64,000 bases of DNA from NCBI GenBank assembly GCA_963785725.1, contig CAWAWS010000024.1:6937-70936 (forward strand), written 5' to 3'. The notes under the pieces were generated by a model. That model worked only from the letters and a program-made list of their open reading frames with translations. It was not told where the DNA came from and ran no database searches. The stretch is from an uncultured delta proteobacterium. GTDB taxonomy: Bacteria; Myxococcota_A; Polyangia; Palsa-1104. Position numbers and translations under genes: made by a program. Shown piece after piece: positions 1,961 to 52,311 of the stretch. Each line of letters opens with the position of its first letter. Position 1 is the first letter of the stretch.

Positions 1961-2176
1961 CACGCCGCGGACTCTGTGCAACCGATGTTCCAGCCCGCGA
2001 AAGCGCTGCGGCAGGCCGATTTCTCGCGGTTTCAGAGGCTCATCGCCGGCGCTGACAAACTCCGTTGACTGGGCGCGTTGTAGTGCTCGGACCCCGATGT
2101 GGTGAGTGCCCCACTGAGCACGCGAATGAGCACACGGCAGACGCGGTGCATAAGCTTGAATCAGTGGGCAGTTTGC

Positions 2177-2191
2177 GCGAGTCTGGTGCCA
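2177..2191 (-). promoter_or_regulatory. sigma-54 promoter-like sequence pointing toward the P460-like gene
   Basis: Minus strand reads TGGCAC-cagac-TCGC (consensus TGGCAC-N5-TTGC). GG and GC are correctly spaced, with one mismatch in the -12 box. It lies about 215 nt upstream of the 1960 start. Confidence 0.3.
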
Positions 2192-2218
2192 CTTTCGGGG
2201 GGCACTTTTGGGAGGCGA

Positions 2219-3736
2219 ATGCCGAACCAGGCCGAGCTCACGACCAACATCTTGGTCGTCGACGATAACCCCGCCAATCTGACCGCGGTCGGCGCTGTTC
2301 TGGAGCCGCTCGGGCAACGCGTCGTGCTCGCCAAATCCGGCGAGGAGGCGCTGCAGCAGCTGCTCATGGGCGACTACTCCGTGGTGCTGTTGGACGTGAT
2401 GATGCCGGGCATGACCGGCTTCGACGTCGCGCGCATGATGCGTGCGCGCGAACGCACGAAAAATGTGCCGATTATCTTCTTCACGGCCAAGGAGCCCGAT
2501 CCGCGCGACGTCGTCCAAGGCTACTTGCACCGCGCGTCGGACTATTTGGTCAAGCCGTTCGATCCCGATGTCTTGCGCGCCAAAGTCTCGGTGTTCGTCG
2601 ACCTGTTTCGTGCGCGCGAGGCGGCGCAGCAGCTGGCGCGCGAGGAGGAGCGGCGGCGCCAGGCCGAGCACGAGCGGCGCCGGCTGTACACGCTGCTCAT
2701 GCGCGCGCCGGCAGCGGTCGCCGTCATCGCCGGGCGCGACCAGCTGTTCGAGCTCGCCAACGAGCGCTTCTGCAAGCTGTTCCGCCGCACGGATTTCGTG
2801 GGCAAGCGGCTCGTCGATCTCTTCCCGCAGCCGGAGGCGACGCCGCTGTTGCAGCTGCTCGCCGACGTCTACAAGCGCGGCGAGCCGTTCTCGGGCACGG
2901 AGCTCGAGCTGCAGCTGCGCCGCAACGGCGACGGCGCGCTCACCGCCGGCTACTTCGACTTCAGCATCGAGATCCTGCGCGACGACGACGGCCACGTGCG
3001 TGGCCTCATGGGCGCGGTGACGGACGTTACCGACTACGTCAACGCGCGCCGCATCCGCGACGACTTCTTGGGCATCGCCTCGCACGAGCTGAAGACGCCG
3101 TTGACGACGCTGCGGCTGACCGCCGACGGCATGGCCAACGCGCTCGCCAAAGGCAACGCCAGCCCCGAGCGCATGCAGTCGAAAGTGGCGGTCATTCGTA
3201 AACAGCTCGGTCGCTTGGAGCGGCTGATTCACGACCTGCTCGACGTGTCGCGCATCGCGGCGGGGCGCTTGCCGTTGATGCTCGAAGAGGTCGATTTGAG
3301 CGGGCTGGCGCAGGAGGTCGTCGAGCGGTTCGGCGAGGAGCTGGCGGCGGTCGGCTGCGTGACGACGGTGCACGCGAGCAAGCCGATGGTCGGCCATTGG
3401 GATCGCATGCGGCTCGATCAAGTCGTCACCAACCTCATGACGAACGCCATGAAGTACGGCAAGCGGCGGCCGATCGAAGTCATCGTCGACGGCGACGACG
3501 AGACGGCGCGGCTGACGGTGCGCGACCACGGCATCGGCATCGCGGCCGAGCATCAGGCGCGCATCTTCGAGCGCTTCGAGCGGGCGGTGTCGGCGCGCGA
3601 CTTCGGCGGGCTCGGGCTCGGCTTGTGGATCATCTCGCGCATCGTGCAGGAATTATCCGGACGCGTGCACGTCGAGAGCGAGCTCGAGCGCGGCGCGGCG
3701 TTCGTGGTCGAGCTGCCGCGCGGGCGCAAGAGCTAG
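2219..3736 (+). CDS. hybrid response regulator-PAS-histidine kinase
   Basis: ATG 2219 after GGAGG (2211-2215). REC (ILVVDDNP...VLLDVMMPGMTG...LVKPF), coiled linker, PAS-like region, HisKA H-box FLGIASHELKTPL, and HATPase N/G boxes (NLMTNAMKYG, DHGIGI, GGLGLGL). Confidence 0.9.
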   Translation: MPNQAELTTNILVVDDNPANLTAVGAVLEPLGQRVVLAKSGEEALQQLLMGDYSVVLLDVMMPGMTGFDVARMMRARERTKNVPIIFFTAKEPDPRDVVQGYLHRASDYLVKPFDPDVLRAKVSVFVDLFRAREAAQQLAREEERRRQAEHERRRLYTLLMRAPAAVAVIAGRDQLFELANERFCKLFRRTDFVGKRLVDLFPQPEATPLLQLLADVYKRGEPFSGTELELQLRRNGDGALTAGYFDFSIEILRDDDGHVRGLMGAVTDVTDYVNARRIRDDFLGIASHELKTPLTTLRLTADGMANALAKGNASPERMQSKVAVIRKQLGRLERLIHDLLDVSRIAAGRLPLMLEEVDLSGLAQEVVERFGEELAAVGCVTTVHASKPMVGHWDRMRLDQVVTNLMTNAMKYGKRRPIEVIVDGDDETARLTVRDHGIGIAAEHQARIFERFERAVSARDFGGLGLGLWIISRIVQELSGRVHVESELERGAAFVVELPRGRKS

Positions 3737-7516: not shown

Positions 7517-8430
7517 ACGGCGTCAACGATAAGCGTTCGCTCGGCGTCGGTCAGGCGTTGAGCGCGGCGGCGCAGTGGCGCCTGTTGCTGGTGTGGACGG
7601 TCGGCCTGCTCGTGCCGACGGCGGTCGCGGCCATTCCGATCTGGCGGCTGCTCACCGTGGCGTTCGATCGGTCGCCGCGCGCGGTCGAGATCGCGCGTCA
7701 CTTCGACATGCTCGCGTTCGAGGATGTCATCTCGGCGTTCGGTCGCTCGATGGCGCCGGTCGCGGGCGCGTTCTTGGCCGCGGGTCTGACGTTCGTGCTC
7801 GTGCAGCCGCTCTTGGCCGGCGTCACGGCGGCGGCGGCGCGGCAGCCGTTCGAGCCGATGCGCATGCGCACGCTGCTCGAGCGCGGCATGGCCTTCTACG
7901 GTCGCATGTTCCGCATGATGATCGTATCGCTCGTCGTCCTCGGCGTCGTCGTCGGCAGCATCAACGGCCTCGTCGGCATGATCGTCGGCAAGGTGACCAA
8001 GCACGCCGTCCTCGAGTCCACCGCCGATCGCGCCGGCCACGTGTCGACCGCCATCACGCTCATTCTGTTCATCCTCGTGCACGCCACGATCGAAGCCGGT
8101 CGCGCGCAGCTCGCGGCCGACGATGCGCGCCGCTCGGCTTGGGGCGCGTGGTGGGCGAGCGTCAAGCTGCTCGTGCGCCGTCCGCTGCCGGTGTTGGGGC
8201 TGTACCTCGCGCCGACGCTGGTGAGCCTGGCAGTCGCGTTCGTGTTCCTCGTCGTGCGCATCCGCTTGGACGGCGCGAACGCGTTGCTGTTCTGGCTCGC
8301 GTTCTTGGTCACGCAGCTGGCGGTGGCGACCATCGGCTGGGGTCGCGCGGCGCGGCTGTTCGCGCTGACGGACCTCGTGCGCGTGCCGCCGGTGGTCGCG
8401 CCCGCGGCCGCGACGATGTCCACGCCGTAA
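7513..8430 (+). CDS. polytopic membrane protein, unknown function
   Basis: ATGA overlap with the M1 peptidase stop (7513-7516). About 6 hydrophobic helices. No recognisable motif. Confidence 0.6.
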   Translation: MNGVNDKRSLGVGQALSAAAQWRLLLVWTVGLLVPTAVAAIPIWRLLTVAFDRSPRAVEIARHFDMLAFEDVISAFGRSMAPVAGAFLAAGLTFVLVQPLLAGVTAAAARQPFEPMRMRTLLERGMAFYGRMFRMMIVSLVVLGVVVGSINGLVGMIVGKVTKHAVLESTADRAGHVSTAITLILFILVHATIEAGRAQLAADDARRSAWGAWWASVKLLVRRPLPVLGLYLAPTLVSLAVAFVFLVVRIRLDGANALLFWLAFLVTQLAVATIGWGRAARLFALTDLVRVPPVVAPAAATMSTP

Positions 8431-8570
8431 CTGCAGCGCGCCCGCGCCGCTCACGCCTACTCCCGCCCGCACCCACGCAATCCTCCCGATTGCGCCGCAC
8501 GCCAATCACGTCACGAGAGCGCACCGACCGTCGAAGGAGCCCGACGTAGCGAGCGGCGGTCGGCCCGCGC

Positions 8571-8652
8571 GCGAACGCGTGGTCACATGCGAACGCGGGT
8601 CAGTCGTGGCAACGCGGTCGGCCGGGCGAACGCAGGTCAGCGGGCGAACGCG
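8571..8652. repeat. five degenerate tandem repeats GCGAACGCG(N)GGTCA, period 17-20 nt
   Basis: Units start at 8571, 8589, 8609, 8626 and 8644. The array sits in the convergent gap and runs over the stop codon (8637-8639) of the minus-strand gene. Confidence 0.7.
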
Positions 8653-9218
8653 CGCGCGCCTTCGGCCTCGCCGATGTCGCGGCTCAAAATCGCCGTGCGC
8701 AGCTCTGCCCACGCCGTGAACGTCTCCATGCCGTCGGCAGGCGCGGCCTTCGCCGGATTGCAGACGCCCGGCTTGGGCGCGGCCAAGAGCGGACAATAGT
8801 CGCGCTCACACGCTTGCAGCACCGTCGTCATGCGCGCCGCCGGCTCCGGCTTGTCGAAATCGAGCTGCGCTTGCCGGCAACCGGCCTCGCGAAAGAGCGG
8901 CGCGCAGGCACGGGAAACGACAGCGGCGTCGGTGGGCTCGCCCGGCGGCGTCGGCCCACCACGCGTCGCGCGGCGCTCGGCCACTTGGGCCTGCGCGGCG
9001 CGGCAAGCCTCGACCCGCGCGTGCACGTCGCCGGCGGGCGCCGGCGCCACCGCGGCAACGGCCGGCGGCGTCGCGACCGCGGGCGCCGGCGGCGGCGCGG
9101 GAATGACCGGCGCGACGCCGAGCCCCGCCGGCGGCGGGACTGCGCTCGGCAACGCCGCCCAAACCGCGAGCCCCATCAGCACGACGATACCGGCGATGAT
9201 TCCGATCCGAGGAGACAT
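8637..9218 (-). CDS. membrane-anchored protein with Pro/Ala-rich linker and Cys-containing C-domain
   Basis: ATG 9218. N-terminal TM IGIIAGIVVLMGLAVWAAL, then a PAPPPAP linker and a globular part with 6 Cys. Confidence 0.5.
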   Translation of the reverse strand: MSPRIGIIAGIVVLMGLAVWAALPSAVPPPAGLGVAPVIPAPPPAPAVATPPAVAAVAPAPAGDVHARVEACRAAQAQVAERRATRGGPTPPGEPTDAAVVSRACAPLFREAGCRQAQLDFDKPEPAARMTTVLQACERDYCPLLAAPKPGVCNPAKAAPADGMETFTAWAELRTAILSRDIGEAEGARAFAR

Positions 9219-40334: not shown

Positions 40335-40964
40335 ATGCGCCGCCGCGAGCGACTGTTCGCCATCACCGAGCACTTGCGCGGCCGCCGCAGCGGCGTGACG
40401 GCCGAGACGCTGGCGGCGCGCTTCAACGTCACCGTGCGCACGATCTATCGCGACCTCGACAGCTTGCGCGACGCGGAGCTGCCGGTGAAGGCCGAGCGCG
40501 GCGCCGGCGGCGGTTACGCGCTCGATCGCGCCTACACGCTGCCGCCGGTGAACTTCACGCCGCGCGAGGCGGCGCTGCTGGTCGCGCTCGGTCGTTGGGC
40601 GGCGGAGCTGCGCATCCTGCCGTTCGTCGAGACGCTGGCCGGCGCGCTCGACAAAGTGCGCGGCGCGCTGGGCGCATCGGCGCAGCGCGAGCTCGTCGAG
40701 CACATCGACTCCATTCAGTTCGTCGGCGTGCCGGCGCTGGGCGCGTCGCCGGCGATTCGCGCGGCCATCGAGTCGGCGTGGTTCGAGCGGCAGCCGATCC
40801 GCATTCGTTATCGCGGCGCCGACGACATCGTGTCGACACGCGTCGTACGGCTGGTGACGGTGGTGATGGAGCGCAGCCTCACCCTCCTCAACTGCGACGA
40901 TCTCGACAAGGGTGAGCGACGGCAGTTTCGGCTCGATCGCATCCTGGACGCCCAGCTCGTCTGA
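40335..40964 (+). CDS. YafY-family transcriptional regulator (HTH + WYL domain)
   Basis: HTH LAARFNVTVRTIYRDLDSL. WYL-like C-terminal region (IRIRYRGADDIVSTRVV...RQFRLDRI). Confidence 0.8.
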   Translation: MRRRERLFAITEHLRGRRSGVTAETLAARFNVTVRTIYRDLDSLRDAELPVKAERGAGGGYALDRAYTLPPVNFTPREAALLVALGRWAAELRILPFVETLAGALDKVRGALGASAQRELVEHIDSIQFVGVPALGASPAIRAAIESAWFERQPIRIRYRGADDIVSTRVVRLVTVVMERSLTLLNCDDLDKGERRQFRLDRILDAQLV

Positions 40965-41012: not shown

Positions 41013-41465
41013 ATGGAGAACCATTGGCTCGGGGTGGTGTCGCGGGCGCACGTGGAGCGCGGCGTGGCGGGCGGATTCGCGCAGCTGTGTCATGGCCGCG
41101 CGGCGCCGCTCGAGCGGATGCGGGCGGGCGATTGGCTCGTCTACTATTCGGCGACGGCGGAGATGGGCGGCGGCGAGCGAGTGCAGGCGTTCACGGCGCT
41201 CGGCCAGCTCGTCGACGATCGCATCTACGAGGTCGACTTGGGCGATTGGCGCGCCCATCGTCGCGACGTGCGCTACGAGCCGGTCGGGCAGGTGGCGCTG
41301 GCGGAGCTGGCGCCGCAACTCCATCTGACGGCGCGGCCGCACTGGGGTTTCGCGCTGCGTCGTGGCCATCTGCCGCTCGACGCGCACGATTTCGCGATCG
41401 TCGCGCAGGCGCTGCGGCAAGCCCCGCGCCGCCGTGATACGCTCGCCGCCGCCGTCGTCCGCTGA
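41013..41465 (+). CDS. stand-alone EVE (PUA-like) domain protein
   Basis: HWLGVVSRAHVERGVAGGFAQLCHGRAAPLERMRAGDWLVYYS... fits the pattern of ~150-aa EVE-domain proteins. Confidence 0.65.
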   Translation: MENHWLGVVSRAHVERGVAGGFAQLCHGRAAPLERMRAGDWLVYYSATAEMGGGERVQAFTALGQLVDDRIYEVDLGDWRAHRRDVRYEPVGQVALAELAPQLHLTARPHWGFALRRGHLPLDAHDFAIVAQALRQAPRRRDTLAAAVVR

Positions 41466-41508
41466 CCCCAATGATAGGCGTTGCGGCACGTATGGCGCGG
41501 AGGTCCCG

Positions 41509-42450
41509 ATGATGCGCGCTTCTTCGGTAGCGACGATTTTGGGTGCGGTGGGCTTGATTGCGACGGGCTGTAGCGGGCACTCCGGGCTGTCGGGCACGGG
41601 CGACGGCGGCAGCGGCGGCGGCGGCGGGACGACCACCGACAGCGCGACGTTCACGATGACGCCGTTCTCGGTCGCGGCCGGCCAAGAGCTGTACTACTGT
41701 CAGACGTTCGCCAATCCCTTCGGCGCCGACGTCGAGATTTCGAGCTTCGAGTCGCACATGACGACGGGCTCGCATCATATGTTGCTGCTGTTTCAGGACG
41801 GCGCGACGGACGGGACGCTCACGCCGTGCAGCGGGTTGACGTTCGGGCCCATGCCGTACGGGACGCAGCAGCCGGATGGCGAGATTACCTATCCGTCGGG
41901 GATCGCGGCGCTGGTGAAGTCGACGCAAGGCTTCAACTTGGTCGTGCACTACTTGAACGCGACGATGGCCGACATCCCGTCGACCACGGTCACGGTGACG
42001 CTGCACAAGGCGACGCCGGGAACGGTGCAGCAGCACGCGGGCGTGTTCTTCTTCGACAACATCAGCGCGCTCACGCCGTCGCTCGGCGGCGGCATCCCGC
42101 CGAACACGACGAAGACGATCACCGCCAGCTACACGACGACGCAGGACATGAATGTCATTTACGCGGTGTCGCACATGCATCAGAAGTCGCTCAATCTGAC
42201 GGCGACCTACGGGACGGCGGCGACGATGCTGTACACGACCGATTCGTGGGACTCGCCGCCGTTGCAAGCCTATACGCCGCCGGTGACGCTGCCGTCGGGG
42301 ACGACGATCAACTGGGCGTGCACGATCGACAACGATTCGTCGACGGAGCTGACGTTCGGCGAGTCGGCGCTGACGAACGAGATGTGCATCTTCAACGGGC
42401 AATATTGGCCCGCGCCCGACGACAGCCCGACGATCAACATCATGCGCTGA
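41509..42450 (+). CDS. lipoprotein with PHM/DBH-type copper monooxygenase ligand pattern
   Basis: GGAGG then ATG 41509. Lipobox LIATG|C and a Gly linker. HH (res 89-90), H147, HMH (222-224) and M292. Confidence 0.65.
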   Translation: MMRASSVATILGAVGLIATGCSGHSGLSGTGDGGSGGGGGTTTDSATFTMTPFSVAAGQELYYCQTFANPFGADVEISSFESHMTTGSHHMLLLFQDGATDGTLTPCSGLTFGPMPYGTQQPDGEITYPSGIAALVKSTQGFNLVVHYLNATMADIPSTTVTVTLHKATPGTVQQHAGVFFFDNISALTPSLGGGIPPNTTKTITASYTTTQDMNVIYAVSHMHQKSLNLTATYGTAATMLYTTDSWDSPPLQAYTPPVTLPSGTTINWACTIDNDSSTELTFGESALTNEMCIFNGQYWPAPDDSPTINIMR

Positions 42451-42474
42451 CGGCGTTCGCGCGCGCGCTCGTGT

Positions 42475-44109
42475 ATGCTCGGGCGAATGCGCGCGCGCGG
42501 CTTGGTCGTCGTCGCCGGGGTCCTCGTCACCGGCTGCAGCCGCTCGCCGACGTTCACGCACGACATCGCGCCCATCCTGCACAGCCGCTGCGCGCCCTGC
42601 CATCACACGGGCGGCGCCGGGCCATTCCCGCTCGTCACCTACGCCGACGCCAAGCCGCGCGCGCGGCAGATCGAGCGCGTGACGGCGCGCGGCTACATGC
42701 CGCCGTGGAAAGCGGCGCCGACGGTGCATTACGCGAACGAGCGCATCCTCGACGCCGGTGAGCGCGCGCTCCTGCAGCGCTGGGCGACGGCGGGCGCGCC
42801 GCGCGGCGACGGGCCCGAGCCGACCGCGCCCGATTTCCGCGACGGCTGGCAGCTGGGCACGCCGGACGCCGTCGTCAAGCTGCCGCCGTACACGCTCGCC
42901 GCCGACGGGCCCGACGTCTATCGCAACTTCGTGCTGCCGTCGCCGCTGCCGGGCACGCGCTACATCGCCGCCTGGGAATTTCGCCCCGACACGCGCGCCA
43001 TCCATCACGCGATCTTGAACCTCGACGCGACCGGCTGGGCGCGCAAACGCGACGCGCTCGACGCCGCGCCCGGCTTCGACGGCATGGACCCCGGCGACAT
43101 CCAAGCGCCCGACGGCTTCTACCTCGTGTGGACGCCGGGCCAAGCGCCGACGCCGCCCGATCCGCACGCGGCCTGGCCGCTCGACGCGCGCACCGACCTC
43201 GTGCTGCAGCTGCACCTGCGACCGACGGGAAAGCCGGAGGTCATCGCGCCGACGATCGCGCTCTATCTCGCGCCCACGCCGCCGACGCAGGCGCGCGTCA
43301 CCTTGCGCATCGGCGACGTGCCCATCGATCTGGCGCCGGGCGTGCGCGACTACAAGATCCACGATCAGTGGACGCTGCCGGTCGCCGTCGAGCTGGTGTC
43401 GCTGTTCCCGCACGCGCATTACCTGGCGCAGCACATGCGCGTCTGGGCGCGATTTCCCGACGGACACGAGCAGCCGCTGCTGACGATCGACGACTGGGAT
43501 CCGGCGTGGCAAGACGAATACGTGTTGGCCGAGCCGCTGGCGTTGCCGCGCGGCAGCACGGTGGCGATGGAGTTCACGTACGACAACTCGGCCGCCAATC
43601 CGCGCAATCCCAATCGGCCGCCGGCGCGCGTCGTCACCGGCGAGCGCACGATCGACGAGATGGGCAACGTGACGCTGGTGGCGCGCGTGGCGTCGACGGC
43701 GGACAAGCTGCAGCTGCGCGAGGCCAAGTTTCGCCGGCAGCTGGCGGCGGGCGCCGGCGCGAAGGCGCGCTACAACCTCGGCAACACGCTCATGGCCGAG
43801 GGGCGCGCCAAAGAGGCGATCGAGGAGTTTCGGCGCGCGCTCACGCTCGATGGCGACTTGATGGCCGCGCAGGTCAACTTGGGCGCGGCGCTGCTCACGG
43901 TCGGCGACGTCGAGGGTGCGCGCGCGCAGCTCGACGCGGCGGCGCGGCGCTGGCCGGAGTCGGCGACGGCGCACGCCAACTTGGGCCGGGCGCTCGTCGC
44001 CGCCGGGCAGCGCGACGCAGCCGTGGCCGAGCTGCAGCGCGCGCTGGCGCTCGATCCCAATTTCGCGCCCGCCCGCGCCACGCTCGAAGCCCTACTCCGC
44101 CAGCGGTAA
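42475..44109 (+). CDS. lipoprotein: CxxCH haem motif + PHM/DBH-type domain + TPR repeats
   Basis: Lipobox VLVTG|C. CAPCHH (res 39-44). HH (177-178), H247, HAH (313-315) and M396. C-terminal TPR-like repeats (YNLGNTLMAEGRAKEAIEEFRRAL...). Confidence 0.7.
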   Translation: MLGRMRARGLVVVAGVLVTGCSRSPTFTHDIAPILHSRCAPCHHTGGAGPFPLVTYADAKPRARQIERVTARGYMPPWKAAPTVHYANERILDAGERALLQRWATAGAPRGDGPEPTAPDFRDGWQLGTPDAVVKLPPYTLAADGPDVYRNFVLPSPLPGTRYIAAWEFRPDTRAIHHAILNLDATGWARKRDALDAAPGFDGMDPGDIQAPDGFYLVWTPGQAPTPPDPHAAWPLDARTDLVLQLHLRPTGKPEVIAPTIALYLAPTPPTQARVTLRIGDVPIDLAPGVRDYKIHDQWTLPVAVELVSLFPHAHYLAQHMRVWARFPDGHEQPLLTIDDWDPAWQDEYVLAEPLALPRGSTVAMEFTYDNSAANPRNPNRPPARVVTGERTIDEMGNVTLVARVASTADKLQLREAKFRRQLAAGAGAKARYNLGNTLMAEGRAKEAIEEFRRALTLDGDLMAAQVNLGAALLTVGDVEGARAQLDAAARRWPESATAHANLGRALVAAGQRDAAVAELQRALALDPNFAPARATLEALLRQR

Positions 44110-44170
44110 ACGCGGCCCGCGTCGCGCTCGAGAATTTGCCCGCCAATTGCGCGTCTACAAACGCGGCCGT

Positions 44171-44704
44171 TCACAGCGGGTCGCCGAGGGCGCAGCCGAA
44201 CGCGGGCGCCTCGGCAGTCGGCGGCGCGCGGCCGGCCAGCGCGGCAGCGATCGCGTCGTCGAGCTCGTGCGTCGTCGGCGCCGGCCGCTCGCGCGCGAAA
44301 TCGATCTGCCGGTCGTCGATACGGCCGCGATACACGCGCTCCCTTCCGCGGTAGACGATCGCCTCCGGCGTCACGGTCGCGCCCATCGCCCGCGCCAGCC
44401 GATGCCGCGGATCGCGCAACGCCGGCAATGCCAAGCCGTACGCCGCCTGATGCGCGCGCACCGCCGTCACGTCGTCGTCGGGATAGACGAGATAGAAGGC
44501 CACGCCGCGCGCGCGCCATTTATCGTATTGCCGGCGCAGCTCGGGCGCCGAGCGGTTCGACAGCGGACAGCCCGTCGCCACGAACACGAGCGCCGTAACC
44601 CCGCCGCCGGCCAATGGATCGACCGAGGTGCCCGCGAGATCTACGCCGCGCGCGCATCCGCTAACGACAAGCAGCGAGCAAACGACCCAGCGGCGCGCGC
44701 CCAT
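44171..44704 (-). CDS. redoxin/thioredoxin-fold lipoprotein with CxxS motif
   Basis: Lipobox LLVVSG|C. ALVFVATGCPLSNR...GVAFYLVYPDD...TPEAIVY. Confidence 0.7.
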   Translation of the reverse strand: MGARRWVVCSLLVVSGCARGVDLAGTSVDPLAGGGVTALVFVATGCPLSNRSAPELRRQYDKWRARGVAFYLVYPDDDVTAVRAHQAAYGLALPALRDPRHRLARAMGATVTPEAIVYRGRERVYRGRIDDRQIDFARERPAPTTHELDDAIAAALAGRAPPTAEAPAFGCALGDPL

Positions 44705-44787
44705 CCTTACAATGTAGGCGTTTCGAGTTACAAAGCGTCTTGCAATCGCATGCTTGACTATTAAACCAGCGTGCTATGCTGCGCGCC

Positions 44788-46296
44788 ATGTCAAGTCGGA
44801 TTCGTGTCGTCCTCGCTTCCCTCTTCACCGTCGGTGTAGCCACGGCGTGCCTCAACCCGCCCGTGGAATCACCGACCACCGTCGTCGTTCAGGACACGCC
44901 AGTGCGCGTGCCGCAGAACGAGCAAAACCAGATCGACGTCCTCTTCATGATCGACAATTCACCGTCGATGGACGCGATGCAGACCGAGCTGAAGGCGCGC
45001 TTCGCCGACTTCTTCCAGGTCTTCCAAGATCTGGCGACGAACGGCACCTACGCCGACTTGCACATCGGCGTCGTGACGTCCGACTACGGCGCCGGCGACA
45101 CGGCCGGCGGCGGCTGCCAGGCTTCGCCGGGCGGTCAGAACGGCCTCTTGCAGGCCAAGGGCGCCGCCGCCGACGCGAGCTGCGTGGCGCCGACGAACGC
45201 GCCCTACATTCAGTACGCGTTCCAGAAGAACGGCACGCCCATCAGCAACTTGCCGGCCGGGCAGGACCTCGTGCCGACGTTCACCTGCATGGCGTCGGTC
45301 GGCGCCGGCGGCTGCGGCTTCGAGCACCAGCTCGAGTCGGTGCTGCAGGCGCTCAAGAACACGAAAGAGAACAACGGCTTCTTGCGCACCGACGCGCTCC
45401 TCGCCGTCGTCTTCGTGACCAACGAGGATGACGGCTCGGCGCCGCCGACCGCCAAGTTCTACGAGTCGGCCGCCGACCCCAGCATGTACGGCGCGTACGA
45501 CACGTATCGCCAGACCGAGTTCGCCGTTTACTGCGGCGGCGTCAAGATCCCGTACGGCATGCCGATGTCGCTCACCGGCTGCGCCGCGGCGCCGAACCTC
45601 TCGCCGACGCCCGATCCGAACTTGGCGTTCGACATCTCGCGCTACACCAACGCGTTCACGCAGCCGATCAGCCGCGGCGGCATCAAGGCCAGCGCCGACG
45701 ACGTCCTGCTCTTCGCCATCGACGGCCCGGAGACGCCGGTCTCGACGGCGCTCGTGACCAGCGGCACCGGCCTCGGCGTCGCGCCCAACCCGTCGTACGT
45801 GCCTTGCGGCGCGCTCGGCACCAACTGCGTGCAGCGCCTCAACCACGTCTGCCAGAACAACGTGTCGCCGCCGTTCTTCGCCGACCCGTCGGTGCGCATC
45901 AACGCCGTCGTCAACAGCGCCAAGTTCAAGCAGACGAGCAGCATCTGCGGCGACGACTTGAACATGGCGCCCGACTTCACCTCGGCGCTGCAGGCGCTCG
46001 GCAAGCTCATCTCGTCGCAGATCAGCCCCGGCTGCATCCCGGCCAAGCTCGCCGACCTCAACAACCCGGAGTGCATCGTCGAAGACGTGACCGATACGGC
46101 GATGGGCCAGACGATCACGTCGATTCCGGCGTGCGCGACGGCGGGCGCGAACGTGTTCCCGTGCTGGACGATCGCCCCCAACGCGCTCTGCAACGGCATC
46201 TCGCCGCAGGGCGTCGGTATGACGGTCGAGCGCAACGGCATGGCGGCGCCGCCCAACACGAACGCCTCGGTCGAGTGCAGCACCATCGCCCAGTAA
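44788..46296 (+). CDS. lipoprotein with VWA-like MIDAS motif
   Basis: ATG 44788 (or 44776). Signal ...FTVGVATA|C. DVLFMIDNSPSM (DxSxS), later LAVVFVTNEDD. Many paired Cys. Confidence 0.65.
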   Translation: MSSRIRVVLASLFTVGVATACLNPPVESPTTVVVQDTPVRVPQNEQNQIDVLFMIDNSPSMDAMQTELKARFADFFQVFQDLATNGTYADLHIGVVTSDYGAGDTAGGGCQASPGGQNGLLQAKGAAADASCVAPTNAPYIQYAFQKNGTPISNLPAGQDLVPTFTCMASVGAGGCGFEHQLESVLQALKNTKENNGFLRTDALLAVVFVTNEDDGSAPPTAKFYESAADPSMYGAYDTYRQTEFAVYCGGVKIPYGMPMSLTGCAAAPNLSPTPDPNLAFDISRYTNAFTQPISRGGIKASADDVLLFAIDGPETPVSTALVTSGTGLGVAPNPSYVPCGALGTNCVQRLNHVCQNNVSPPFFADPSVRINAVVNSAKFKQTSSICGDDLNMAPDFTSALQALGKLISSQISPGCIPAKLADLNNPECIVEDVTDTAMGQTITSIPACATAGANVFPCWTIAPNALCNGISPQGVGMTVERNGMAAPPNTNASVECSTIAQ

Positions 46297-46518
46297 GCGT
46301 TCCGCAGTCGCTTCGCCTCTCTTCGTAACGCCTTCACCTTCGCCACTTTCGTCATCCCCGCCGTCGCAGCCGCGACCGCTCAGCCACGTTCGCGAGCCGT
46401 GGACGGGGCGGCAATTCCACGACGCGTAGGCGGCGTCGGCGTGGAGCCGCGCCGCGATCACGGCCGGACGAGAGGTTGCGTTCGATTGATTGGCGATGGT
46501 TGGTGAGCTGGCTTCGCT

Positions 46519-47979
46519 TTACTTGACCGTCGCGAGCATGGCGGCGGCGATGGCAGCGGCGCCCCACAACGCGGAGACGACGGCGACGGCGCGCGCGCGC
46601 GGACGATGCGCCGGCATCGTCGCCAGCGTCCACACCGTGCCGGCGACGGCGAGGCCGGCGCCAGACGTCACGAGCGCGGCCGACTGCGCGTTCGAGCCGT
46701 GGTGCCACAACGCCGCGCCCGTGACCGCGAGCGGCAGGCCGACGGCGATCGCGCTCCAGCCGGCGATCGTCAGCGCGTGCGCCGCGCCCTCGTCGGCATC
46801 AGCAGCTGCGGGCGCGGCGAGCAGCAGCGGCGCGGCGACTTTTCGCGCCGACATGACGGTGACGCCGGGCGCGGGCGGCCCGCCGTCGAGCGCGGCGGCG
46901 ACGCGCGCGGCGGCCCGCGCAACCTCCGACGCCGCCGCGCTGCCGGCGGCGCCGCGCGCGCTCGACGACGCCACCAGCCGCGCGCCGCGACCGTCGACGA
47001 CATAGCCCCAAACGGCGACACCGGGACGACCATCGGCGGCGTCGGCGGCCAACACGTAGACCCGACCGGCCGCGAGCGCGACCGCTAGCTGCCCGACCCA
47101 ATGGGCCTCTTCGCTGGCGCGCGAAGCATGCGTGGCATAAGCGAGCCCGACGAAGCGATCGCTGCGCAGCGCGGCCTCGAAGTCGACGTCGATCGCCACC
47201 GGCACGTCGCCACGCGCGAGCGTCACGCGATGCAGCCGCCCGTCGCCGTGCTCACCGGCCGCGAACAGCCGATAGTCGCCCGGGCGCATCGGCAGCGGAC
47301 GCGCGCCATCGACGGCCTGGCCCTCGACGAACGCGTGCGCGCCCGGCGCCGGCGGCAGCGTCACGACGAGCCGCGCCGTCGTCGCTTGCGCCGCGCCCAA
47401 GCGGTCGTGCAGCTGCACCAGCTCGCGCTCGTTGCGACCGGGATCGACCGGCAAATCGGGCACGTTGCGCAAGAGCTCCAGCATGCGCGCCTCGGCCAGC
47501 TGCGCCGCTTCCGGGCCGTGCGTCACTTGATAGGCGCGACTCAGCTTCAGCAGGATGTGCTGATAGAGAGCGCGGGCGTCGCGATCGTGCGCCAAGGTCG
47601 CTTGCGCGTCGCCGAGGCGGGCACGCGCCGCTTCCAGCTCGTCGATGGACTCGCGCACGCGCGTGCCGCTGAAAAACAGGTTGCGCTCGGCTTGCCGCGC
47701 GCGCGCCGCGATCTCGGCCAGCGCGCTCGCCGACAGCTGCGCCGGCGCCGGGCCGAAGCGGGCGTCGATGGCGTCGGCGAGCGCGCGATCGGCGAGCGGC
47801 TGCCCGAGCGCGGCGACGACGTCGGGCAGATAGACGTGCACGTCCGACGTCTGCCCATCGGCGTCGGCGCCGGAATCGGGCTTGGCGACGACCGCTTCGA
47901 TGACGATCGCGCGCGGCGCCGCCGCGGCCGAATGCGCCGCGCCGGTCACGACTGCGCACCAGACGGCGACGCGCTTCAC
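46519..47979 (-). CDS. secreted/membrane hypothetical protein (4th gene of kinase operon)
   Basis: GTG 47979 overlaps the upstream TGA (GTGA). Signal VKRVAVWCAVVTGAAHSAAAA. 3-4 C-terminal TM helices. Confidence 0.55.
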   Translation of the reverse strand: MKRVAVWCAVVTGAAHSAAAAPRAIVIEAVVAKPDSGADADGQTSDVHVYLPDVVAALGQPLADRALADAIDARFGPAPAQLSASALAEIAARARQAERNLFFSGTRVRESIDELEAARARLGDAQATLAHDRDARALYQHILLKLSRAYQVTHGPEAAQLAEARMLELLRNVPDLPVDPGRNERELVQLHDRLGAAQATTARLVVTLPPAPGAHAFVEGQAVDGARPLPMRPGDYRLFAAGEHGDGRLHRVTLARGDVPVAIDVDFEAALRSDRFVGLAYATHASRASEEAHWVGQLAVALAAGRVYVLAADAADGRPGVAVWGYVVDGRGARLVASSSARGAAGSAAASEVARAAARVAAALDGGPPAPGVTVMSARKVAAPLLLAAPAAADADEGAAHALTIAGWSAIAVGLPLAVTGAALWHHGSNAQSAALVTSGAGLAVAGTVWTLATMPAHRPRARAVAVVSALWGAAAIAAAMLATVK

Positions 47980-49358
47980 GGCACCTCGTGCGCGCCGACG
48001 TCCCACTTGCCGTTCGTCGGCTGCGGTCGCGCGCGCCCGTCGTAGTCGTGATCGACCGGCGACGTCGTCAGCTGATCGATGCAGCAGGCCAGATTCGCCG
48101 TCGTGCGGCCGTTCAGGTGATAGTCGGTCGCGCTCACGAAGTCGGGGACGAGCGACGTCGAGCCCAATAGCGTGCAGGCGCCGCTGGTGTCGCTGATGGC
48201 GTTGCCTTCGACGATGGAGTTGGCGATGGTCGTCGCGCCCGAGCACAAGATGCCGCCGGCGGCGTTGCTGACGACGGTGTCGTGCATGAAGCCGGGCGCC
48301 GCGGCGGTCGCGCCCGAGCCGATGAGCACGCCCGCGCCACCGCTGCCATTGCCGACGATGAAGCAGTTGGTGATCGTGTAGGGCGCGCCGCTGATGGAGA
48401 TGCCGCCGCCGGCGTTGCCGGGGCCGATCTGGTCGCGATCGAGCGTGACCGCGCAGGCGTTGGCGTTGAGGGCGACGCCGTTGATGCCGTGCAGCGCGCT
48501 GCGGCGGAGGGTGAGCGTGGGCCCGAGCGCGCCGTTGACGCAGGCGATGCCCGGCTGATTGACGCCGCTGCCGATGATCTGGAGCTCGTCGAGCAGCACC
48601 GTCGTCGTGGCGCCGCTGATGCCGACGGCGGGGTCGGTGGCGTCACCGCTGAGCGTGGCGGCGGGCTGGGTGTCGGCGCCGACGATGCGGATGTTGCCGC
48701 TGGTGATGGCGACGTGCGGATAGGCTGTCGACGAGCCGATGACGCGCACGAGCGGCTGCACGGCGAGCGCGGCCGTGACGTCGCAGGCGGGGTCGGCGAG
48801 CGTCGCGGCGTGGCTGCCGATGCAGGTGCCGTTGGCGTTGTCGGCGTAGGCGACGGTGGCGGCGGCGGCGCAGGTGCCGTCGGGGTTGCAGAGCGCGGCG
48901 GTGCATTCGGCGTGCGCGTCGCAGGTGCGGCAGACGCCGCTCGCGCCGCAGATGGGCGTGGCCGCGGCGCAGTCGCTGCTTTCGACGCCGGCGGTGGCGC
49001 ATGCGGCGCACGTGCCGGTGGCGGCGAAGCAGCGCGGCGTCGCCGACGAGCGGCCGAGGCAGGCGCCGTCGTCGCCGCTGCCGGTGCAGGCGCGGCAGAC
49101 GCGGTCGGCGCAGATGGGGTGGTCGTCGGGGCAGTCGCTGTTGGCGCTGCAGCCGGCGAGATCGGCCACGCCGAGGTCGGGGCTGCCGCCGTCGGCGAGC
49201 GCGGGCTGGCAGAGCTTGGCTTGCACGTCGCAGCGCGGATAGGCGGGATCGGCGCAGGGCCAGCGGGACGTGCCGTCGCAGTAGACGTTGCGCACGGGGA
49301 CTTTGCGGCAGCCGACGAGCAGCGTGGCGACGGCGAGGACGAGGGCGCAGGCGCGCAT
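47976..49358 (-). CDS. lipoprotein: Cys-rich N-terminal modules + right-handed parallel beta-helix
   Basis: Internal ATG 49358. Lipobox TLLVG|C. Repeated C..C...C modules. Gly/Asn-rich beta-helix turns. C-terminal DYHL...DYDGRARP...DVGAHE motif typical of beta-helix proteins. Confidence 0.7.
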   Translation of the reverse strand: MRACALVLAVATLLVGCRKVPVRNVYCDGTSRWPCADPAYPRCDVQAKLCQPALADGGSPDLGVADLAGCSANSDCPDDHPICADRVCRACTGSGDDGACLGRSSATPRCFAATGTCAACATAGVESSDCAAATPICGASGVCRTCDAHAECTAALCNPDGTCAAAATVAYADNANGTCIGSHAATLADPACDVTAALAVQPLVRVIGSSTAYPHVAITSGNIRIVGADTQPAATLSGDATDPAVGISGATTTVLLDELQIIGSGVNQPGIACVNGALGPTLTLRRSALHGINGVALNANACAVTLDRDQIGPGNAGGGISISGAPYTITNCFIVGNGSGGAGVLIGSGATAAAPGFMHDTVVSNAAGGILCSGATTIANSIVEGNAISDTSGACTLLGSTSLVPDFVSATDYHLNGRTTANLACCIDQLTTSPVDHDYDGRARPQPTNGKWDVGAHEVP

Positions 49359-50505
49359 CAGAAGCTCCCTACGAGCGCAATGGCGGTGGCCGCTGGGGCG
49401 ACGGCCGCGATGGGTGGCGGCGGCGTGAAGTCGCGCGCGCCGAGCGGCGGTCGAGCGTCGGTGGACGGGCGCGTCGGCGGCCACGGCGCGGTGACGGCCG
49501 CGCGCGACCACGGCGCGGCGACGGCGGCGCGCGACCACGGCGCGAACGCGGCGTCAGCCCGAGCGCGATCGGTCGGCGTGAACGCGAGGGCGCGCGGCGC
49601 CGGTTTGCGCGCGGTGACGAGCAGCGCGGCGGCGGCGGCCATGAAGGCCGCGACACCGACGGCGCCGAGCGCGATGCCGATCGTCGTGTCGTAGCGATAG
49701 CCGCAGCGGCCGGAGCACGCGGCGCGGTCGTCGTAGGCGCCGGCGGTGACGAGGCCGGCCAAGCTGCCGGCCGCGAGCCCGGCGGCGGTCGCGCCCAGCC
49801 CGAGCGCGAGCGTACGCCGCGACGTCGCGCCGGCGGCCGCGGCACCGAGCGTGACGGTGCGCGCGGCACCGGCGGCGCAGTCGATCTCCGCTCGCGCGCC
49901 CGCGGCCGCGACGGTATGTCGGCCGGCGGCGACGGAATGCGCGAACGGCGCCGCCCCGAGCGCGACCGTATCGACGCTGACGGCCGCACCGGTCGGCGCC
50001 GCGACCGTCAGCGTGCACAGCGGCCGATTGCGCTCGTCGCGCAGGAGCGGCGCGGCGGCGCGGGCGAAGCTGTCCATCAACGCGTCGGCGCTGCAGCCCG
50101 GACAGGGCAGCTCGAGCGTGCCCGCGACTTGCGCCGCGTCGACGGCGAACGAGAGCAGGTGCGCCGTCCAGCCGTCATGGCGCCGCTCGATGCGCACCGT
50201 GATCAGCCGCTCGACCGACAGCCGATCGCCGAGCGTCAAGCTGCAGCGATCCTCGGCACAGCCGCGCAGCGCCGGCGTGGCGGCGAGCGCCGCGGCGACG
50301 GCGTCGTGCGGCGCCAACAGTGCATCGGTCGGCAGCGCCAGCGACAAGGCCCGCCAAGCGCGCTCTTCGACGGCCGCGCGCGCGGCTTCGTCGACGTCGC
50401 CTTCGACACGGATTTCGCCGATCGCCCAACGCCGCGGCGCTGCCAACGCCGTCGCCGACACGCCCAGCGCCAACGCCAGCGCCGCCATAACCGCCGACGC
50501 CCGCA

Positions 50506-50506
<1 letters not shown>
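49358..50506 (-). CDS. secreted protein with PEGA-like module, two TM helices and a repeat-bearing tail
   Basis: ATG 50506 overlaps the kinase stop by 1 nt. Signal MRASAVMAALALALGVSATALA|A. LTVAAPTGAAVSVD. TM pair. PWSRAAV(A/T)A repeats. Confidence 0.55.
49481..49545. repeat. 27-bp in-frame tandem repeat, 2.4 copies
   Basis: CCACGGCGCGG(T/C)GACGGC(C/G)GCGCGCGA at 49481, 49508 and 49535. Encodes APWSRAAVA/APWSRAAVT on the minus strand. Confidence 0.8.

Positions 50507-52311
<1,805 letters not shown>

Follow-up and report, generated by a model that had tools for sequence, protein, structure and literature searches.

A putative haem-c-fused relative of the PHM/DBH two-copper monooxygenases and its thioredoxin-fold partner in an uncultured delta proteobacterium

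Three lipoprotein genes in the genome of an uncultured delta proteobacterium of the Polyangia raise the question of whether the chemistry of PHM (peptidylglycine alpha-hydroxylating monooxygenase), DBH (dopamine beta-monooxygenase), and TBM (tyramine beta-monooxygenase), the textbook animal enzymes which make the amidated peptide hormones (PHM) and noradrenaline (DBH), is also at work in the bacterial envelope, and of how it would be supplied with electrons there. To our knowledge, these enzymes have no studied prokaryotic counterpart. The genes, termed here A, B, and C, lie in a window of 64,000 nt (assembly GCA_963785725.1, contig CAWAWS010000024.1), and all the positions given below are those of this whole window. 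The reading favored here, with a probability of roughly 0.55, is that A and B are lipid-anchored, extracytoplasmic, non-coupled two-copper monooxygenases that carry out O2-dependent hydroxylation, that B is reduced through its own haem, and that they are accompanied by a thioredoxin-fold partner. The three genes are as follows:

41509–42450, + strand: gene A, a 313-aa lipoprotein, stand-alone and like the two-copper monooxygenases of the PHM/DBH fold
42475–44109, + strand: gene B, a 544-aa lipoprotein with a monohaem cytochrome c domain, a divergent PHM/DBH-type core, and tetratricopeptide repeats (TPR)
44171–44704, − strand: gene C, a 177-aa lipoprotein with a PRX_like1-type thioredoxin fold, the conserved partner of B

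Each of the three proteins carries a lipobox, which is LVTG-C21 in B and VVSG-C17 in C. The longest mechanical open reading frame (ORF) of A opens at a GTG at 41362, but preference is given to the ATG at 41509 on three grounds: a ribosome-binding site precedes it (a GGAGG Shine-Dalgarno sequence 7 nt 5′ of the ATG), a signal peptide follows it, and the homologues start at the same point. A gap of 24 nt separates the stop of A from the ATG of B, which is the earliest in-frame start past that stop, and C is convergent with B, with 61 nt between their stop codons. The long antisense ORFs of the region, such as that at 41191–43974 (− strand), are regarded as artefacts, because the G+C content of the window is ~68–70 %. 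A scan for promoters and terminators turned up nothing useful, and an exact-sequence cluster look-up returned no names.

The initial annotation of this DNA, made from the letters alone, had read A and B as lipoproteins that carry the six copper ligands of PHM and DBH in the same order and with the same spacing, namely HH, H after ~60 aa, HxH after another ~70 aa, and M ~70 aa further on, and had described C as a convergent redoxin-fold lipoprotein with a CxxS motif. All of these features are present where they had been placed. In A, the relevant segments are the following:

41509–41571, + strand: signal peptide and lipobox IATG-C21 (from the sequence; C21 is invariant in 32 homologues)
41773–41778, + strand: H89-H90, CuH ligands, equivalent to PHM H107/H108 (invariant; aligned to PHM ‘VHHMLLF’)
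41947–41949, + strand: H147, CuH ligand, equivalent to PHM H172 (invariant; aligned to PHM ‘LQVHY’)
42172–42180, + strand: H222-M-H224, CuM ligands, equivalent to PHM H242/H244 (invariant; aligned to ‘RVHTHHLG’)
42382–42384, + strand: M292, CuM ligand, equivalent to PHM M314 (invariant; aligned to PHM ‘DEMC’)

A profile of the A family, built from the 32 homologues, recovers rat PHM from the PDB (E 3.3e-7) in an alignment that spans PHM residues 74–334 and both of its domains, and which places HH, H, HxH, and M on H107/H108, H172, H242/H244, and M314, with the SHH of A falling on the VH107H108 of PHM. The same alignment sets C64/C107 of A on the PHM disulfide C81–C126, and C271/C293 on C293–C315, so that C293, beside M292, corresponds to PHM C315. 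The six ligands are invariant in 32/32 homologues, at identities down to 42 %. The AlphaFold2 model of A (predicted local distance difference test, pLDDT, 89.1) was compared with the PDB by Foldseek, and all of its top 31 matches are PHM or human DBH (E 8.6e-14 to 1e-10, template-modelling (TM) score 0.58–0.67; the matches at E ~1e-13 have TM 0.64–0.67 over ~295 columns). The Pfam model Cu2_monoox_C (PF03712) scores 24.7 bits on A, with a curated cut-off of 23, and part of the A family is already tagged automatically with this domain; a single-sequence phmmer search of A against the PDB gave no match. The wider A-type family comprises 4046 clusters (50 %-identity) at E <= 1e-3, and the complete HH-H-HxH-M set is found in 99 of 121 full-length representatives, with the equivalent of H147 kept in 120 of them. 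Minicystis rosea is among the bacteria with an A-type gene.

Protein B has a more complex architecture, in which a haem domain, a copper core, and a repeat domain follow one another:

42544–42804, + strand: cytochrome c domain, residues 24–110 (Pfam, profile matches, invariance, and helix layout)
42589–42603, + strand: haem motif C39-A-P-C42-H43
42697–42699, + strand: M75, putative distal ligand, within an invariant MPPW motif
42847–43689, + strand: catalytic core, residues ~125–405
43003–43008, + strand: H177/H178, CuH ligands (invariant)
43213–43215, + strand: H247, CuH ligand (invariant)
43411–43419, + strand: H313-A-H315, CuM ligands (invariant)
43660–43662, + strand: M396, CuM ligand (invariant)
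43696–44103, + strand: C-terminal TPR domain, eight helices, ~3.5 repeats

The AlphaFold2 model of B (pLDDT 91.1, predicted TM score 0.83) retrieves from the PDB, among its top 31 Foldseek matches, only PHM and human DBH (E 6e-12, target-normalised TM 0.64), and the matches of both A and B below this rank are either unrelated or confined to the TPR domain. A single-sequence phmmer search of B against the PDB returned TPR proteins only. Direct alignment of the two families by hhalign gives a probability of 96.6 % (E 5e-10, 239 columns), with the ligands co-aligned, and A and B are on this basis homologous, as distant paralogues, in agreement with the relationship proposed at the outset. The six copper ligands of B, together with C39, C42, H43, and M75, are invariant in 91/91 homologues from species-representative genomes, which share 37–58 % identity and represent at least seven phyla, including the Myxococcota, Acidobacteriota, Gemmatimonadota, Planctomycetota, Latescibacterota, and Sumerlaeota, as well as one gammaproteobacterium. 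The six ligands are likewise constant in a further alignment (A2). Profiles, structure, and constraint all place A and B in the PHM/DBH two-copper monooxygenase fold, with a pattern well past what chance would give: the structural similarity is significant for both proteins (Foldseek E ~1e-13 for A, 6e-12 for B), and the ligand positions, whose variation among close homologues would have spoken against this reading, are constant throughout the 32 A and 91 B homologues.

The fused haem-c module that had been proposed from a single CxxCH motif, the only one in a likely gene of the window, behaves as a real monohaem cytochrome c domain in both Pfam and profile matches. Among 22 members of the B family, Pfam assigns Cytochrome_CBB3 to all 22 (best E 5.5e-7), PccH to 17, and Cytochrom_C to 14, while a profile of the domain finds the monohaem cytochrome PccH (4rlr, E 0.0048) and also the haem domain of the hydrazine synthase alpha subunit. 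The model has three helices in this region, at 27–38, 56–70, and 94–105, a layout typical of class I cytochromes c. The N-terminal domain of B is a monohaem class I c-type cytochrome, for which covalent haem is predicted and in which Met75 is the likely distal ligand. At the other end of the protein, Pfam TPR models cover residues 429–540 (TPR_11, E 1.3e-14), and the helices at 408–543 of the model correspond to the TPR region, which is present in every homologue examined, in a number of repeats that varies. The family is large: more than 2681 homologues were found, the clusters at 90 % identity number more than 2600, and species-representative genomes of at least seven phyla, nearly all of uncultured organisms, contribute at least 534 matches. 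Its members have no annotated domain besides TPR, and go under the names ‘tetratricopeptide repeat protein’ and ‘cytochrome c family protein’.

The neighbors of B were surveyed at 79 genome loci centered on this gene. A C-family gene, 36–52 % identical to C, lies directly beside B in 30 of them. The two genes are convergent in the Polyangia, the window included, and elsewhere C is mostly found immediately upstream on the same strand; in these non-Polyangia pairs, the stop and start are mostly overlapping or spaced by close to zero nucleotides, in a tight C-to-B operon. One such C–B operon belongs to ‘Acidobacteria bacterium Mor1’ (CP011806). The association is also recovered from the side of C, as both of the C homologues searched in this way (2/2, one in Candidatus Acidoferrum and one in another metagenome-assembled genome) adjoin B homologues, as do those of L004 and L006. 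The conserved unit is B with C. The initial annotation had asked whether the monooxygenase pair and the redoxin form a conserved neighborhood, which is the case for B and C and, for A and B, in a close relative only. This relative, whose A is 82 % identical, is syntenic with the window along the whole 34.8–44.7 kb stretch, A–B tandem included. In six A homologues of greater distance, the gene lies by itself, in surroundings that are unrelated, and a weak A-like match occurs at only 3/79 B loci. The A–B–C trio was rejected as a conserved unit, given the six loci with A alone and the restriction of the synteny to the 82 % relative. Clustering of the ORFs that flank B at the 79 loci yielded no universal third gene, and one apparent cluster, formed by antisense ORFs inside B, was rejected as a high-GC artefact.

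In one Acidobacteriota metagenome-assembled genome (L057:9964–12396), C and B occur in one continuous reading frame of 811 codons, with a hydrophobic segment between the two parts and no room for a signal peptide on the redoxin part. This may be a genuine fusion of unusual topology, or a read-through with an internal start, and it is taken as a possible, rather than a proven, fusion because the internal hydrophobic segment divides C from B.

Several acidobacterial loci contain more than one B-type gene. Two to three diverged paralogues are found within ~6 kb in L016, L017, L023, L027, L028, L045, L047, L051, and L057 (at about 2000–3200 and 8001–9200), with three copies in L057. Recurrent neighbors at the acidobacterial loci are TonB-dependent-like barrels (CarboxypepD_reg/OMP_b-brl_4), FG-GAP/ASPIC-UnbV proteins, sulfatases, and small cytochromes c. 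These may be substrate-uptake loci, but their recurrence is not used as evidence, because the genomes are related and the counts are not independent.

Protein C itself has three residues or motifs of particular relevance to its role:

44558–44569, − strand: C46-P-L-S49
44450–44452, − strand: H85, invariant
44192–44194, − strand: C171 of the C-terminal Gly-Cys, invariant

In Pfam, C matches the AhpC-TSA model with E 1e-10 and the Redoxin model with E 1.5e-8, and its profile matches 2ywi (E 1.8e-21), as well as 2cvb and 3u5r, in the PDB, over an E range of 1.8e-21 to 5.7e-18. The family, with 2170 matches, has as invariant residues C46, H85, D98, T112-P113-E114, G127-R128-x-D130-D131, R140, and G170-C171. 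The second position of the CxxC is occupied by Ser, Ala, Gly, or Cys, with Cys in just one of 28 sequences. Despite the AhpC-TSA match, the motif F-x-x-T-x-C-P-x-S resembles that of TlpA and ResA more than the PxxxT/SxxC of the strict peroxiredoxins, in which the peroxidatic Cys goes with a catalytic Arg. The Cys of the first CxxC position, the Thr-Pro (cis-Pro) loop, and the C-terminal Gly-Cys are those of a PRX_like1/TlpA-like protein. The PRX_like1 proteins 2YWI, 2CVB (TTHA0593), and 3U5R share with C the fold, the C-terminal Gly-Cys, and a single conserved Cys where a CxxC would begin; they are uncharacterised structural-genomics proteins to which neither a function nor a partner is assigned, whereas the subfamily of C is linked to B and has His85 as an additional invariant residue.

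Taken together as a mechanism, the favored reading would run as follows. The apoprotein of B would be exported unfolded by the Sec pathway and lipidated, receive its haem from the Ccm system, and be loaded with two copper ions in the periplasm. Its haem c would then accept single electrons from periplasmic respiratory carriers and pass them, one at a time and in the place of ascorbate, to CuH, which would relay them to CuM. The reduced CuM would bind O2, abstract a hydrogen atom from the substrate, and hydroxylate its C–H bond, by analogy with PHM and DBH. The TPR domain would probably recruit either the substrate, for which an envelope peptide, protein, or lipoprotein is the most likely candidate, or else a partner. 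Protein A would share the copper chemistry but lacks a donor of its own, and would have to be reduced in trans, and it is a matter of speculation that the haem domain of B is its donor. Protein C, with its Cys-Pro-x-Ser and invariant C-terminal Cys, would act on B at the level of thiols, possibly as a reductant, as a maturation factor of the copper sites through a Cys/His/Cys triad, or as a peroxide scavenger.

A number of observations weigh against this reading. The model for the N-terminal domain, Cu2_monooxygen (PF01082), matches neither A nor B in the Pfam scan, and on Cu2_monoox_C (PF03712) B scores 13 bits, below the Pfam threshold of 23. About 13 of the 121 A-type representatives (~11 %) are without five of the six ligands, all six of which are kept by the A of the window, and this branch would show that a PHM-like fold can be used without copper. 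There is no adjacent C at 49 of the 79 B loci, which shows that B does not depend on a C in cis, and no conserved neighbor of B, among the clustered flanking ORFs of these loci, hints at a substrate. The TPRs may serve the assembly of a complex, rather than the capture of a substrate. Finally, a literature search, in which subscription journals were poorly covered, found no biochemically studied bacterial member of the group.

The main rival concerns the role of C, which may be a maturation or maintenance factor for the copper sites of B, similar to Sco or TlpA in binding or delivering Cu(I), or else one that holds ligands and chaperones in the reduced state, with the chemistry of A and B unchanged and the haem as the sole entry of electrons. 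TlpA reduces ScoI and CoxB for the assembly of CuA, and the fold of the Sco proteins is that of thioredoxin. Such a role would suit the fact that B already owns a one-electron entry module in its invariant haem domain, and the combination in C of invariant Cys46, His85, and Cys171 with the lack of the second CxxC Cys is closer to a metal site of the Cys/Cys/His kind than to a classical dithiol reductant; no gene for a CcdA/DsbD-type reductant was found nearby. The nearest solved relatives of C (2ywi, 2cvb, and 3u5r), however, are uncharacterised proteins that are not known to bind copper, and His85 is specific to the subfamily of C. This explanation is possible, if short of probable, and the role of electron donor first assigned to the redoxin survives as just one among several.

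A second alternative, which appears unlikely, is that B and C form a periplasmic defence module of haem c, copper, and a peroxiredoxin-like protein that reduces O2 or peroxide and has no organic substrate, with the PHM-like core as an oxidase and C removing the H2O2 that it produces. Uncoupled PHM leaks H2O2, which is in keeping with such a module, as are the matches of C to the AhpC/TSA and Redoxin models and the lack of a conserved substrate-related gene beside B. The conserved Cys of C, on the other hand, aligns to the first CxxC Cys of thioredoxins, as in TlpA and ResA, and not to a peroxidatic motif. The strict His2Met site of CuM and the TPRs of every homologue examined are also hard to reconcile with a simple oxidase, and the two to three diverged B paralogues held by many genomes suggest different substrates.

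The substrate is also at issue in a third alternative, that A, B, or both are true peptide-amidating enzymes of the PHM type, which act on glycine-extended secreted peptides. The fold and all of the copper ligands match PHM, and A keeps two of its disulfides, but the clamp by which PHM holds its peptidyl-glycine substrate (R240/N316/Y318) is not conserved in either protein. The R240 position is variable in the A family (V/T/S/A; V220 in the window) and is Y/F in B (F311); that of N316 is I/V in the A family (I294) and D/E/N in B (N398), and that of Y318 is variable in the A family (N296) and W/T in B (T400). For this reason, A and B are considered to be PHM-like, rather than orthologues of PHM or amidating enzymes, and the absence of the carboxylate clamp argues against a C-terminal glycine peptide as the substrate. 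No domain of the PAL lyase was found in A, B, or the neighboring genes of the loci examined, nor was a gene for a precursor peptide found in these neighborhoods, and amidation is accordingly very improbable. The weakest explanation takes the PHM-like domains for pseudo-enzymes or for binding modules without catalysis, comparable to PNGase F or to the A-type branch that has lost its ligands but keeps its disulfide cysteines. It can be dismissed almost entirely, given that A and B of the window keep all six ligands and that those of B are invariant over homologues whose columns are, on average, much less conserved.

The ligand-less A-type representatives (P0422, P0423, P0425, P0437, P0448, P0451, P0456, P0458, P0472, P0485, P0499, P0501, and P0506) retain only the equivalent of H147 and the four disulfide cysteines, and many of them have N-terminal extensions of 100–400 residues, in some of which Cys-rich segments resemble Dickkopf or Dumpy. 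A role as binding proteins or pseudo-enzymes is possible for this branch, and Pfam scans of the long A-type relatives gave no informative extra domains. Elsewhere in the A-type family, a homologue with 51 % identity (L088:1586–4935) is divergent beside two genes of the FGE-sulfatase family, which includes copper-dependent formylglycine-generating enzymes. In two Polyangia (L001:5154–5969 and L003:5157–5969), a conserved gene for a protein of ~270 aa lies 31 nt upstream of the A-type gene; the protein starts with a signal peptide, ends in aromatic residues (…YVY), and may be an outer-membrane beta-barrel. This gene is absent from the window.

The genes that flank A, B, and C in the window encode an NtrC-type regulator, a histidine kinase, a GT21 glycosyltransferase, an SRPBCC protein, a WYL regulator, an EVE protein, and unannotated lipoproteins. 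They offered no functional link to the trio, and are not kept beside B elsewhere. The WYL-domain helix-turn-helix regulator (40335–40964) comes directly before the EVE-domain protein (41013–41465; NCBIfam PRK02268, E 1.6e-44), just upstream of A, and this pair is syntenic in L090, the relative with 82 % identity in A; EVE domains are readers of modified nucleic acids. On the other side, 44776–50518 is a run of secreted and lipoprotein genes with no family assignment and a G+C of 0.73–0.75:

44776–46296, divergent from C: a 506-aa lipoprotein with a weakly MIDAS-adhesin-like N-terminus
46519–48246, − strand: a 575-aa protein
47976–49538, − strand: a Cys-rich protein that weakly matches a beta-helix
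49358–50518, − strand: a protein that weakly matches PEGA

The three minus-strand ORFs in 46519–50518 overlap one another, and their true starts are uncertain. The 506-aa lipoprotein was considered as a further partner and rejected, as it is not found beside C elsewhere.

The B family as a whole may represent a widespread and unrecognised group of ascorbate-independent PHM/DBH-type monooxygenases, wired directly to the respiratory chain by the fused cytochrome c and acting post-translationally to hydroxylate envelope proteins, peptides, or lipoproteins selected by the TPRs, with a monothiol thioredoxin-fold partner, and with A as a stand-alone form reduced in trans. This more extensive proposal is offered tentatively, as a possibility that is still doubtful in its full extent. 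The analysis suggests a bacterial-envelope version of PHM/DBH chemistry that is independent of vitamin C, and, if true, this version would show such chemistry running without ascorbate, and would reveal oxidative modification in the envelopes of the Myxococcota, Acidobacteriota, Gemmatimonadota, Planctomycetota, and others. The path of the electrons across the solvent gap of ~11 Å between the copper sites of PHM, DBH, and TBM is still debated. A tethered haem donor would, if confirmed, provide a self-contained and spectroscopically addressable system, in which the optical signal of haem oxidation tracks the transfer from CuH to CuM. The link to B provides a first functional context for the uncharacterised PRX_like1 thioredoxin-fold family, and thousands of database entries that are now labelled merely ‘tetratricopeptide repeat protein’ would be flagged as probable copper enzymes.

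Among the known systems, PHM (PDB 1PHM, 1OPM, and 1SDW) has in common with A and B the two-domain beta-sandwich (TM ~0.65, at an identity of only 13–17 %), the order and spacing of the HH and H of CuH and of the HxH and M of CuM, an extracytoplasmic location, and, in the case of A, the equivalents of disulfides C81–C126 and C293–C315. Unlike PHM, however, A and B are lipoproteins, and PHM has no counterpart of the cytochrome c domain and TPRs of B. It also uses ascorbate as its reductant, which is not expected in the bacterial periplasm. The catalytic core and ligands are likewise those of DBH, tyramine beta-monooxygenase, and MOXD1 (PDB 4ZEL), but the accessory domain N-terminal to the core is a DOMON domain in DBH and, in B, a c-type cytochrome in which CxxCH and Met are invariant. 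The TPRs of B are lacking in DBH, which has a dimerisation domain instead. The DOMON domain of DBH is not known to be an electron carrier.

The closest parallels for a haem that supplies a copper enzyme come from other folds. In the haem-c-fused NirK nitrite reductases (Ralstonia pickettii), for example, a tethered cytochrome feeds the copper enzyme, and the cytochrome of cellobiose dehydrogenase serves as partner to the lytic polysaccharide monooxygenases (LPMOs); in each case, single electrons are delivered to a mononuclear copper site in an enzyme that is periplasmic or secreted. The copper domains of these systems (cupredoxin and LPMO) are unrelated in fold to that of B, and catalyze other reactions. 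The literature search, within its limited coverage of the subscription journals, returned no description of a bacterial PHM/DBH-like enzyme, of a cytochrome-c-fused form, or of a redoxin partner. The catalytic core is already known, and the comparison suggests that what is new here is its combination in a haem-c-fused, TPR-bearing, ascorbate-independent monooxygenase of the PHM/DBH type, together with a thioredoxin-fold partner.

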